From: Escherichia phage vB_EcoS_HdH2
Sequence record: NC_048748.1
Reading direction: 5' to 3' (one strand)
Length of the DNA: 64,000 bases
The translations under genes were made by a program, and so were the position numbers. The notes beneath the pieces are model-generated. The model saw nothing but the letters and a program-made list of their open reading frames with translations, did not search any database and was not told the DNA's origin. Shown here piece by piece: positions 36,316-38,092 of the stretch. The first letter of the stretch is position 1; each line of letters starts with the position of its first letter.

Positions 36316-36344
36316 TTGACATTTTCGCCGGGGTAGTGTAAAGT
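36316..36344 (+). promoter_or_regulatory. sigma70-type promoter (TTGACA-17-TAAAGT, TG-extended)
   Basis: Consensus -35; precedes the plus-strand three-gene cassette. Confidence 0.5.
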
Positions 36345-36406
36345 ATATGTTATGGATGAGTGATCAAAGAGACACACATTTTCTATATACTAGGAGGTGT
36401 CAAAAA

Positions 36407-37396
36407 ATGACAGAAGAAGTAGCTAAGAGTCCTGAAACCGTCGCTAGCGTAGCAGCAGAACTGCATCGTCACGAGGAATCAGATAAGAAAAAGTGGGAGA
36501 AAGTCAAAGCCTACGAAGAAGAACATCGTGAACACGATGATAAAGATGAAGAAGATGACGATGATGAACATTGTCATAAATATGGAAAACATAAAATGCA
36601 AGAACCAGTAAACGTATTTACTAACGGCTTCCCTGGCATGGGTGCATTCCCAGCTAACGCAAGTGCTTTCGGTGGAGAAGGTATGGGCCTATTCGGAGCT
36701 ATCCTAATCGGTGCTCTATTAACAGGCGGATTTGGTGGTTTCGGTGGATTCGGTGGACGTGGTGTAGTTAGTGATGGTACCGCAGTTGATGCAGTACTTC
36801 AGAACCAAGATACCGCTAGTATTCTAGCAGCTATTAACACTACTCGTACAGAAGCTAATCAGGGTACTGGAGCTGTTTTAAGCGCAGTTAACAATGGTTT
36901 TAGCCAGACATCCCAAAACCAGAGCCGTGATACTCAGTCTGTACTAACTACGATCTATGGTACAGGTGCTAATCTGTCTAATCAGATCTGCCAGGAAACT
37001 CGCAACGTTATTCAGGGTCAGTTCGATCTTTCTCGCCAGATTGATCAATCTTTCGCAGCTAACCAGATAGCTCGTGCACAAGATAAGTTTGATTCTGCAC
37101 AGATCGCTTTCCAGCAGACTTTACAAACTAATAACCAGTTTGCCGCTGTTCAGGCTCAGATGTGTGCTAACCAGAACTCTCTGGAACGTCAGATCGCTGA
37201 ATGTTGCTGTGAACTTCAGACTGCGATCGCTGGTGTAACTACTGCGCGTATCCAGGATGAGTTAGACGCATGTCGCCTACGTGAAGCAATCGCTGCGGGT
37301 AGCGGTGCTAACGGTCAGGTAATTAATCAAATCGCTTTAAGTCTTGGTGCTATCACTCAGACTCTGGCTGGTCTGCAGGCTAAACTGCCGGCTTAA
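36407..37396 (+). CDS. membrane protein: acidic His-rich N-terminus, Gly-zipper TM segment, Q/N/T/A-rich C-terminal domain
   Basis: ORF 36347-37396 trimmed to MTEEV after aggagg RBS; GLFGAILIGALLTGGFGGFGGFGG segment. Confidence 0.5.
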   Translation: MTEEVAKSPETVASVAAELHRHEESDKKKWEKVKAYEEEHREHDDKDEEDDDDEHCHKYGKHKMQEPVNVFTNGFPGMGAFPANASAFGGEGMGLFGAILIGALLTGGFGGFGGFGGRGVVSDGTAVDAVLQNQDTASILAAINTTRTEANQGTGAVLSAVNNGFSQTSQNQSRDTQSVLTTIYGTGANLSNQICQETRNVIQGQFDLSRQIDQSFAANQIARAQDKFDSAQIAFQQTLQTNNQFAAVQAQMCANQNSLERQIAECCCELQTAIAGVTTARIQDELDACRLREAIAAGSGANGQVINQIALSLGAITQTLAGLQAKLPA

Positions 37397-37417
37397 TATT
37401 AAGGGGAGGAGCCCATT

Positions 37418-37837
37418 ATGAGTAAATATGGTTTTGTAAATAACGGACTTAATCAAAGTATGGGCTCCCAGCAGCCCATTCCGGGTCTGGATAATCCCTA
37501 CTTACAACAGTTGCAACAGCGTTTAGCAGAAGCGCAACAGATGCAGCAACAACTCCAGCAAAACCCTGGAAGTGTGAGTCCTATGCAAATGATGCAGCAA
37601 ATGAGTGGGCAGTCGCAAATGCCTCAACAAATGCAGCAACAGATGCCGCAGCAGCAGCAAGTTCAGCAACAAACCCATCAACCGCAGGTTTCTGCGGAAG
37701 GACAGGCAGTACTAGCCCTTTTCGAAGACTTCGCAAAGACAGAGGATGGGAAGCAGCTTGTATCACTTATGGGTAAGTTTAATAGCTTCTGCCAAAGCCA
37801 AATTGCAAAAGCTCAAAATAGCGGTGATAACTCCTAA
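37418..37837 (+). CDS. Gln-rich low-complexity protein
   Basis: 139 aa; long MQQQ/PQQ runs; strong RBS. Confidence 0.45.
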   Translation: MSKYGFVNNGLNQSMGSQQPIPGLDNPYLQQLQQRLAEAQQMQQQLQQNPGSVSPMQMMQQMSGQSQMPQQMQQQMPQQQQVQQQTHQPQVSAEGQAVLALFEDFAKTEDGKQLVSLMGKFNSFCQSQIAKAQNSGDNS

Positions 37838-37846
37838 GGAGGAATT

Positions 37847-38041
37847 ATGTGTTGCAGAAAATCTGTTTCGTGCTGCCCAATGCCTGTAGCACGTTGTTGC
37901 TCTCCAGCAATGTTTACGCAAATACCGGCGTTCAATCCGTTTGCCTTTAAGCCTACTCTTATCCTGCCCCCTAGAGTAGATTTTCAGTCAAGATTGGCCT
38001 CCCGTATGGGTGGTTGCTGTAACAAGAGTATATGGTTCTAA
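37847..38041 (+). CDS. small Cys-rich protein with CC doublets
   Basis: 64 aa; CC, CC, CC, CC pairs; RBS aaggagg. Confidence 0.4.
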   Translation: MCCRKSVSCCPMPVARCCSPAMFTQIPAFNPFAFKPTLILPPRVDFQSRLASRMGGCCNKSIWF

Positions 38042-38052
38042 AGAACCAAACA

Positions 38053-38092
38053 ATAAAGCCCCTAGTCGAAAGACTTAGGGGCTTTTTCTTTT
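38053..38092 (+). terminator. Rho-independent terminator ending the plus-strand cassette
   Basis: cccctagtc...gacttagggg hairpin then ctttttctttt. Confidence 0.6.

Follow-up and report, generated by a model that had tools for sequence, protein, structure and literature searches.

Why would a T5-like phage carry a complete plus-strand transcription unit in a region where everything around it is read in the opposite direction, and what might the products of that unit do? The question is raised by a three-gene cassette at positions 36316–38093 of the DNA of Escherichia phage vB_EcoS_HdH2 (NC_048748.1) analysed here, a T5-like stretch of 64,000 nucleotides (nt) that is referred to as a whole as the window, in which the cassette is set among minus-strand transfer RNAs (tRNAs) and early genes. 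In the T5 reference record (NC_005859) a homologous block is already annotated, consisting of promoter P12, T5.077 (321 amino acids, aa), T5.078 (138 aa), T5.079 (64 aa), and a terminator, with all three genes labelled hypothetical, and the bare observation of the unit is hence not new. A full-text search for the locus tags in both T5 numberings (T5.077–080 and T5p075–078) found no literature, and the screen for growth inhibitors (toxicity) available for T5 was restricted to T5.002–T5.017, a range that does not include the cassette genes (PMC8201957). What is new is that the trio is recognised as a co-inherited, mobile, and often-lost three-gene module, that evidence is given for gene 3 as a real, conserved gene, that gene 1 is tied to a large uncharacterised phage protein family, and that earlier prion-like and microcin readings of the locus are corrected. 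With high confidence, the cassette is an autonomous, horizontally mobile, and dispensable three-gene operon of the ‘moron’ or accessory type.

A transcription unit opposed to its neighbours

The cassette begins with a sigma-70-type promoter at 36316–36344 (plus strand), the equivalent of T5 P12, with TTGACA at 36316–36321 and TAAAGT at 36339–36344 separated by a 17-nt spacer (10 of 12 consensus positions). A 5′ leader follows (36345–36406), in which the Shine-Dalgarno sequence AGGAGG (36392–36397) can be read 9 nt upstream of the ATG of gene 1 (36407–37396; 329 aa; T5.077 homologue). Gene 2 (37418–37837; 139 aa; T5.078 homologue) is preceded by GGAGGAG and gene 3 (37847–38041; 64 aa; T5.079 homologue) by AAGGAGG, which overlaps the stop codon of gene 2; all three genes are on the plus strand. 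The unit is closed by an intrinsic terminator (38055–38093, plus strand), a 13-pair hairpin with a one-base bulge (38055–38085) and then TTTTTCTTTT, with the U-run UUUUUCUUUU directly 3′ of the hairpin. An RNA fold of positions 38045–38095 gave a free energy of −21.7 kcal/mol (z = −5.6), which none of 200 shuffled sequences matched; owing to the bulge in its stem the plus-strand terminator was missed by a consensus scan and found by RNA folding. The terminator is T-rich on the opposite strand as well and is therefore bidirectional, and the T5 record describes it as an ‘efficient bidirectional rho-independent transcription terminator’.

All of the 24 tRNAs in the window, the flanking genes, and the further called open reading frames (ORFs) are on the minus strand, opposite to the cassette. 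The elements from which the original prediction had assembled a self-contained plus-strand unit, namely the TTGACA-17-TAAAGT promoter, three strong Shine-Dalgarno sites, the terminator, and an orientation contrary to all neighbours, were thus each found where it had placed them, and the promoter and terminator are annotated in T5. The hexamers alone prove little, as promoter-like sites are no more numerous in the region than in shuffled sequences (6 found compared to 7.8 expected), and it is conservation that carries the case. T5, a 74%-identical relative (L022), and a 36%-identical one (L003) all have the TTGACA-17-TAAAGT arrangement 84–91 nt upstream of the start codon of gene 1, and a distant T5-like contig (L032) has a perfect TTGACA-17-TATAAT promoter. 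An equivalent of the bidirectional hairpin lies 3′ of gene 3 in a lambdoid locus (L004), while an E. coli-type promoter was not found upstream of the cassette in non-enteric contexts. A strong sigma-70 promoter with a perfect −35 hexamer suggests early rather than late expression.

Distribution, loss, and movement of the trio

A megablast search with the 1.95-kb region matched 337 phage records, with the closest matches (~97% identical) in Salmonella phages vB_Sen_I1 and Spc35 and Escherichia phage fp01, all T5-like Tequintavirus. Using tblastn, gene 1 was found in 221 phage records and gene 3 in 220, an almost one-to-one co-occurrence, compared to 447 T5-like records with the adjacent gene for an SPFH protein (megablast), so that only about half of the T5-like genomes carry the trio. 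Mapping of presence and absence across T5-like genomes had been proposed with the original prediction, and this uneven distribution is its outcome. BASEL phage Bas33 (MZ501074) lacks the cassette, and its SPFH gene and the gene for a Toprim-domain protein, which flank the cassette in the window, are 287 bp apart. Aligned to Bas33, window positions 36334–36377, which take in the −10 hexamer and ~33 nt at the start of the leader, are kept at 88.6% identity, after which the alignment jumps to 38094; this reads as a clean deletion of window positions ~36378–38093 that left a promoter remnant. Four other phages of the BASEL collection, Bas32, Bas34, Bas26, and Bas27, carry the cassette. The laboratory strain T5st0 (AY692264) has a viable deletion of ~8.2–8.5 kb between T5.068 and T5.081, with which both the trio and the SPFH gene are gone. 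Since T5st0 is viable and Bas33 is without the trio, laboratory hosts support replication, assembly, and lysis in its absence. As a separate observation on Bas33, the gene bas33_0123 is at 69131 in the reference used for RNA sequencing (RNA-seq; PMC13250531, Dataset S1) compared to 78875 in GenBank, with bas33_0079 unchanged, and the laboratory stock seems to carry a deletion of ~9.7 kb in the tRNA region (MZ501074, ~68.2–78.9 kb), recalling T5st0.

The trio recurs with its gene order unchanged in distant T5-like contigs, with gene 1 identities of 36–43%, and in phages that are not T5-like. They are present in Pseudomonas aeruginosa phage KPP23 (ORF074, ORF073, and an ORF starting with MCC), in a 71-kb N4-like contig that encodes a virion RNA polymerase and is ~82% identical to Gamaleyavirus coliphages outside the cassette, and in two different lambdoid contigs, where the Q antiterminator is found on one side of the trio and the holin-lysozyme-Rz genes on the other, with the trio on the opposite strand. 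Its neighbours on both sides point the other way in the T5-like, N4-like, and lambdoid contexts, while in KPP23 it heads a divergent same-strand block. The cassette in the window has a guanine plus cytosine content of 46.1%, compared to 39.4% for the window, and ranks third among 624 segments of the same size. Scans of IMG/VR and of JGI metagenomes using a gene 2 profile built from the non-T5 copies returned nothing beyond T5-like phages. The module is therefore common in T5-like phages and rare but real elsewhere, and the original prediction, which had described a cassette of the early region, had the location right but understated the unit, a mobile accessory element in at least four unrelated phage backbones. 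It was also observed that in the N4-like contig (L030, 5278–5675, minus strand) the cassette adjoins a minus-strand tRNA cluster (Asn, Gln, and Tyr), as it does in T5; adjacency to tRNA genes in both may stem from an insertion hotspot common to the two or from transfer of the cassette together with tRNA genes.

These properties are those of phage morons such as lambda bor and lom and HK97 gp15, with which the cassette shares its own promoter and terminator, an opposed strand, dispensability, patchy presence, occurrence in unrelated phage backbones, and deviant base composition. It differs from them in that three genes rather than one are inherited together, in its occurrence mainly in virulent phages (T5-like, N4-like, and KPP23), and in its proteins, none of which resembles a characterised moron product in sequence. 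The most fitting place for it is among the accessory or moron elements, as an unusual variant whose components differ from every characterised protein of exclusion, lysis, or anti-defence.

The three proteins and their relatives

Gene 1 encodes, in order, a charged N-terminal helix, an acidic and His-rich disordered stretch, the motif EPVNVFTNG, a Gly-rich hydrophobic segment (GLFGAILIGALLTGGFGGFGGFGG, residues 94–117), and a helix of ~200 residues, and the C-terminal domain is high in A, Q, T, N, and S, low in charge, and contains CCC at residues 266–268. Residues 1–63 consist of 22% E, 15% K, 12% D, and 11% H. The description of gene 1 in the original prediction (an acidic His-rich N-terminus, a Gly-rich hydrophobic segment, and a Q/N/T/A-rich C-terminal domain with a CCC motif) was accurate in each of these features. 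A low-charge composition rich in A, Q, T, N, and S is typical of extracytoplasmic fibrous coiled coils of bacteria and phages. Among 5.8 billion proteins 29 homologues of gene 1 were found, and those for which contigs were looked up were all on phage contigs; none of the 29 had a precomputed Pfam domain or an informative name. Across 21 homologues the CCC, C253, and the C-terminal tip (NGQVINQIAxSLGAITQTLAxLQ) are invariant or nearly so, and both the N-terminal helix (VAAELxRHExSDKK) and the motif EPVNV(F/Y)TNG are conserved. The acidic tract is variable, with runs of His in some T5-like phages only (up to HHYHHHHHEH), and conservation within the protein is highest in the CCC region and at the C-terminal tip rather than in the Gly-rich segment.

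That segment is marginally hydrophobic (19-residue Kyte-Doolittle hydropathy of 1.72 at residues 94–112, borderline for a transmembrane helix) and is probably a membrane anchor; its Gly residues are mostly spaced as GxxxxG in the window copy, with GxxxG-spaced versions among the relatives. For the part that follows it, the structure predictions were of unequal quality. A first AlphaFold model of the full-length protein, based on 21 close homologues, was poor (predicted local distance difference test, pLDDT, 50), while a second, based on 60 diverse family members and covering residues 126–329, gave one continuous helix over modelled residues 2–201 of 204 (pLDDT 88.8; predicted template modelling score 0.40). 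A Foldseek search of this model against the PDB returned no match, and so the structure prediction that had been suggested with the original prediction yielded a single helix with no fold match. Models with a lone helix are typically obtained for one chain of an oligomeric coiled coil, and the helix of gene 1 almost certainly oligomerises in this way, with a predicted length of ~30 nm if fully extended. The hydrophobic periodicity of the helix was not significant by Fourier analysis (peak 47.7 at a period of 3.7, compared to a shuffle mean of 45.7).

When 1.8 billion representative proteins were searched with a profile, 110 matches were returned to a wider family, defined in this analysis as the ‘CCC hendecad’ family, with helical 11-residue repeats ending in QxAECCCExK and RLRDEL. 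Approximately two-thirds of the 106 tabulated matches contain CCC, which is nearly invariant in a 60-sequence family alignment, and the distant matches share the Gly-rich segment, the motif QxAECCCExK...RLRDEL, or both. When family proteins are written in rows of 11 a hendecad register is apparent by eye, and more clearly in the relatives than in gene 1 of the window itself, often with (I/V)C at the same position of the repeat and with the CCC in register. Family relatives have Cys at the same position of successive repeats, forming a ‘Cys ladder’, and many have 9–20 Cys and no hydrophobic segment. No Pfam or NCBIfam model was matched among the members tested, and no function was found assigned to any member. 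Family members are encoded in one crAss-like contig and in two related contigs where they lie within 1–2 kb of an endolysin (Amidase_3 in L025 and Peptidase_M15_3 in L034). Compared to the PDB, the family profile weakly matched apolipoprotein A-IV (E = 6e-4), and one relative matched the Pfam Apolipoprotein model at E = 3.2e-10, below the curated cut-off. Like apolipoprotein-type hendecad proteins, the family has an 11-residue register over more than 150 residues and one uninterrupted helix (AlphaFold), but apolipoproteins have no counterpart of the CCC motif, the Cys ladder, or the Gly-rich hydrophobic segment of the gene 1 family, and the similarity probably reflects a shared periodicity and composition, not common ancestry. 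Matches of the family profile to influenza HA2 coiled coils were weak and non-significant (E = 0.25–0.9).

Gene 2 consists of an N-terminal helix (PYLQQLQQRLAEAQ), a low-complexity Gln-rich linker, and a C-terminal domain that contains a single invariant Cys. Conservation between lineages is concentrated in the N-terminal helix and the C-terminal domain (FEEFAxTEDGKQLVSxxGKFNSFCQS), while the linker varies: Gln-rich in T5, it is Pro-rich (PPNPGPPP) in lambdoid and N4-like phages, and in L003 and L032 the stretch is much shorter. The original prediction had called gene 2 a Gln-rich, prion-like protein; the Gln-rich part of this holds for the T5 lineage (27% Gln), but a stretch that is Pro-rich or short elsewhere is no conserved prion-like core, and the middle is better read as a flexible linker. 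With a helix, a flexible linker, and a small conserved domain, gene 2 resembles an adaptor protein, and its homologues are restricted to the same phages as the cassette. Some records label gene 2 a ‘cAMP-dependent protein kinase catalytic subunit’; this was rejected, as a Pfam scan found no kinase domain, and the label is probably a spurious transfer driven by the low-complexity sequence.

Gene 3 is a basic peptide (net charge +7), rich in Cys, Pro, and Phe, and the four CC doublets that had been predicted for it are present at residues 2–3, 9–10, 17–18, and 57–58. Its homologues conserve the start (MCC or MSC), a CCPxPVxxCC core, and usually a C-terminal GxCC. In the loci examined (T5-like, KPP23, N4-like, and lambdoid) a small MCC...CCPxPVxxCC...CC ORF was found 3′ of gene 2, with the gene cut in L032, where the locus ends at the end of the contig. 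Within T5-like phages a codon-position test was weak (5, 6, and 12 variable sites at positions 1, 2, and 3), as was the balance of 22 synonymous and 30 non-synonymous differences, in which a single variant at the C-terminus inflates the second count. Gene 3 is judged to be a real gene because it is conserved across lineages, not because of the codon test. Many T5-like GenBank records have no annotated feature for gene 3, and the collection of 5.8 billion proteins holds only one cluster of it; the gene is systematically under-called. In KPP23 (AB910392, L029) the conserved MCC...CC ORF is at 5936–6118, and the annotated ORF072 (5938–6132), in another frame, was probably picked in the wrong one.

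None of the three proteins, searched as single sequences and as profiles against Pfam, NCBIfam, PADLOC, and PDB sequences, matched a characterised family, and the only database matches were to PHROG 8119 for gene 1 and PHROG 7894 for gene 2, both of unknown function. Clear homology of all three to well-characterised proteins, which had been named as an outcome that would speak against the novelty of the locus, was therefore not found. The original prediction had also recognised the combination in no phage module, and this stands insofar as no characterised family was matched, but the trio itself is T5.077–T5.079, annotated in T5 and present in about 220 phages.

The genes on either side of the cassette are both on the minus strand. 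The SPFH/Band-7 membrane protein (38163–39110; T5.080, a ‘lipoprotein’ in T5) matches PF01145 (E = 2.7e-17), and tblastn found homologues in 721 phage records, among them phages of Klebsiella, Aeromonas, and Vibrio. The small Toprim-domain protein (35622–36191; T5.076) matches PF13155 and has a weak PADLOC match to a DRT-associated DnaG-like model (E = 1.1e-6). Just past the stop codon of the SPFH gene, a second strong hairpin of 14 pairs at 38109–38139 (minus strand) is followed by a minus-strand T-run and looks like the terminator of that gene; the hairpin contains GCGC, and T5 is annotated with a ‘major DNA single-chain interruption’ (nick consensus PuGCGC) a short way past the cassette terminator. 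Further along, a tRNA-like sequence at 39722–39793 (minus strand) scored 35.5 bits to Rfam RF00005, above the gathering score, and was not called by ARAGORN; the T5 record lists tRNA-like ‘stable RNAs’ near the equivalent position.

Candidate functions of the trio

Autonomy, dispensability, patchiness, and movement between virulent and temperate phages place the trio among conflict or accessory genes. The probable anchor, the long low-charge coiled coil, and the conserved distal tip of gene 1 together suggest a membrane-anchored rod, and conserved Cys in all three proteins suggest that they could be joined by disulfides or a shared metal site. Non-essential early phage accessory genes that act at the membrane and have known roles are mostly involved in superinfection exclusion or modification of the envelope, as with T4 Imm and Sp, P22 SieA, HK97 gp15, and T5 Llp. 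The function favoured here, as a tentative proposal that may well prove wrong, is an envelope-associated complex in phage-phage competition, for instance in superinfection exclusion or envelope stabilisation. During infection the inner membrane would hold the rod of gene 1 by its anchor, the conserved Cys of the three proteins would join them into a complex of the cell envelope, and the complex, dispensable for replication, assembly, and lysis, would favour the resident phage over competitors, such as by excluding a superinfecting phage or stabilising the envelope. Directed outward, a rod of ~30 nm would have the length needed to span the periplasm. The tentative grade applies to this functional mechanism and not to the anatomy, and the topology, the oligomeric state, and the interaction of the trio are all inferred. 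The trio is, like known exclusion proteins, a non-essential accessory function, and it is probably early-expressed and membrane-associated, but the known examples are single small proteins, whereas the cassette encodes three proteins with a 30-nm rod and has no sequence or structural similarity to them.

Several observations weigh against this proposal, and topology is its main weakness. The hydrophobic core of gene 1 is short (~12 strongly hydrophobic residues) and borderline as a membrane-spanning helix, and in relatives with a short N-terminal tail the only nearby positive charge sits C-terminal to this core, which hints that the helical domain could be cytoplasmic. As read from the sequence, genes 2 and 3 have no long hydrophobic N-terminal stretch of the export-signal type and gene 3 has no lipobox; both appear cytoplasmic and could not reach a periplasmic rod of gene 1 by known routes. 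Many members of the wider family are without the Gly-rich segment, and anchoring in the membrane is therefore not family-wide. In PADLOC, Pfam, and NCBIfam none of the three genes was similar to known exclusion or defence proteins, and a literature search combining glycine zippers with superinfection exclusion found nothing. Scans of 5,426 complete E. coli genomes, of PLSDB plasmids, and, in two runs, of GTDB species-representative genomes found no copy, so that a role in lysogenic conversion is not evident in enteric bacteria. The sole Tequintavirus dataset of RNA-seq and proteome that was found (PMC13250531) is for Bas33, which is without the cassette, and is thus uninformative on its expression.

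The points on topology would favour a rival in which the coiled coil of gene 1, tethered to the inner leaflet, forms a cytoplasmic scaffold with gene 2 and the CC-doublet peptide, bridged by Zn, Cu, or Fe-S or by cooperative disulfides, and organises or sequesters something inside the infected cell, by analogy to keratin with its keratin-associated CCxPx peptides or to Cys-lined helix bundles for copper storage. Besides the cytoplasmic appearance of genes 2 and 3 and the charge in the short-tail relatives, such a scaffold draws on the conserved Cys of all three proteins, the Cys ladder on one face of the helix in the relatives, and the His-rich runs in gene 1 of the T5 lineage. The His-rich tract is, however, lineage-specific and not found in the KPP23, N4-like, and lambdoid versions, no metal-binding family was matched, a low-charge helix rich in Q, N, T, and S is unusual for cytoplasmic coiled coils, and the benefit to the phage is not obvious, which together leave a scaffold improbable. 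The context of the lambdoid contigs instead points to the lysis genes, which the cassette directly adjoins in both, and the distant relatives close to endolysins in L025 and L034 are in keeping with an accessory of lysis or envelope disruption in which the rod and a small Pro/Cys partner act as a spanin or fusogen or regulate the timing of lysis. By analogy, a Gly-rich ‘fusion-peptide-like’ segment and a long coiled coil would bridge or perturb membranes late in infection, and the non-significant HA2 matches lean the same way. In gene 1 a borderline hydrophobic segment precedes a helix of 200 residues, which might or might not correspond to the membrane anchor and periplasmic coiled coil of an i-spanin. 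The trio is loosely parallel to two-component spanins (lambda Rz/Rz1) in that a protein with a hydrophobic segment and a long, Cys-conserving coiled coil is paired with a ~60-aa Pro-rich, Cys-containing partner, in the lambdoid contexts beside lysis genes. The parallel fails in that gene 3 has neither the signal peptide nor the lipobox that is the hallmark of an o-spanin. Homology of gene 1 to the i-spanin Rz was rejected (no Pfam match; hhalign probability 0.06% for the family compared to the Rz of the same lambdoid contig, L004). Further, a complete Rz (PF03245) is already encoded in the lambdoid contigs, which leaves no need there for the trio as a spanin, the cassette is antisense to the lysis genes, T5st0 and the half of T5-like phages without the cassette are still propagated as lytic phages and hence lyse their hosts unaided by it, and the strong sigma-70 promoter suggests, without proving, early rather than late expression. 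A role in lysis is accordingly considered unlikely.

A counter-defence module directed against a membrane-associated abortive-infection or defence system of the host, and kept where such hosts are met, would explain the patchy presence among close relatives and the spread across virulent phage families, both typical of anti-defence genes, as well as the strong sigma-70 promoter and the dispensability on laboratory K-12 hosts. It fits the distribution but nothing else, as no similarity to known anti-defence proteins and no PADLOC-related partner was found, and a three-protein membrane complex with a 30-nm rod is unlike the mostly small and soluble anti-defence proteins; its probability is judged to be low. 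The resemblance to microcins or pore-forming peptides, which the original prediction had drawn from the Gly-rich segment, is by far the least likely of the explanations. Under it the segment would form a membrane pore that kills cells or makes them permeable, with genes 2 and 3 as immunity or accessory proteins, and it can appeal to the presence of a hydrophobic segment resembling a glycine zipper, shared with the glycine-zipper proteins (SlyB/Pcp and the Pfam families) and microcins, and to a weak, non-significant match to SlyB (the best SlyB match of gene 1, to a PDB chain; E = 0.63). Gene 1 did not match the Pfam glycine-zipper families (Gly-zipper_Omp, YMGG, and Rick_17kDa_Anti) at E ≤ 1, nor any bacteriocin family or characterised toxin, and its mostly GxxxxG spacing, its size of 329 aa, and its ~200-residue helical rod after the Gly-rich segment are not microcin-like. 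Of the genes for export and immunity that a microcin system requires, none was recognised within the cassette or adjacent to it, the CCC region and C-terminal tip are better conserved than the Gly-rich segment, and that segment is missing from many family members; with every testable feature of the class having failed, the microcin reading was rejected.

T5 is a classic model phage, yet this promoter-to-terminator unit is known in its reference record only as three hypothetical genes. Joint travel between T5-like, N4-like, lambdoid, and Pseudomonas phages, together with repeated loss and dispensability in the laboratory, is typical of genes of phage-phage or phage-host conflict, a class that has recently been the source of many new exclusion and anti-defence mechanisms. 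Natural pairs with and without the cassette are at hand, in Bas32, Bas34, Bas26, and Bas27 compared to Bas33 and in T5 compared to T5st0 (in which the deletion also takes neighbouring genes), and the question of function is therefore directly testable. If the function is ordinary, as one more exclusion protein, the gain would be modest, and no surprising mechanism has been demonstrated as yet; the points of interest are the mobility across phage families and the Cys-ladder rod of the gene 1 family. A bolder and rather unlikely reading is that the trio is the founding example of an unrecognised sort of cellular structure built by a phage, a membrane-tethered, Cys-laddered hendecad rod cross-linked or metal-bridged by a CC-doublet peptide, resembling keratin-associated proteins, and an adaptor. 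If true, an envelope-spanning or sub-membrane lattice of this kind would bring with it a new way of excluding superinfecting phages, reinforcing the envelope, or controlling lysis, and the CCC hendecad family, with more than 100 sequence clusters, would be a widespread structural module of phage-infected cells.

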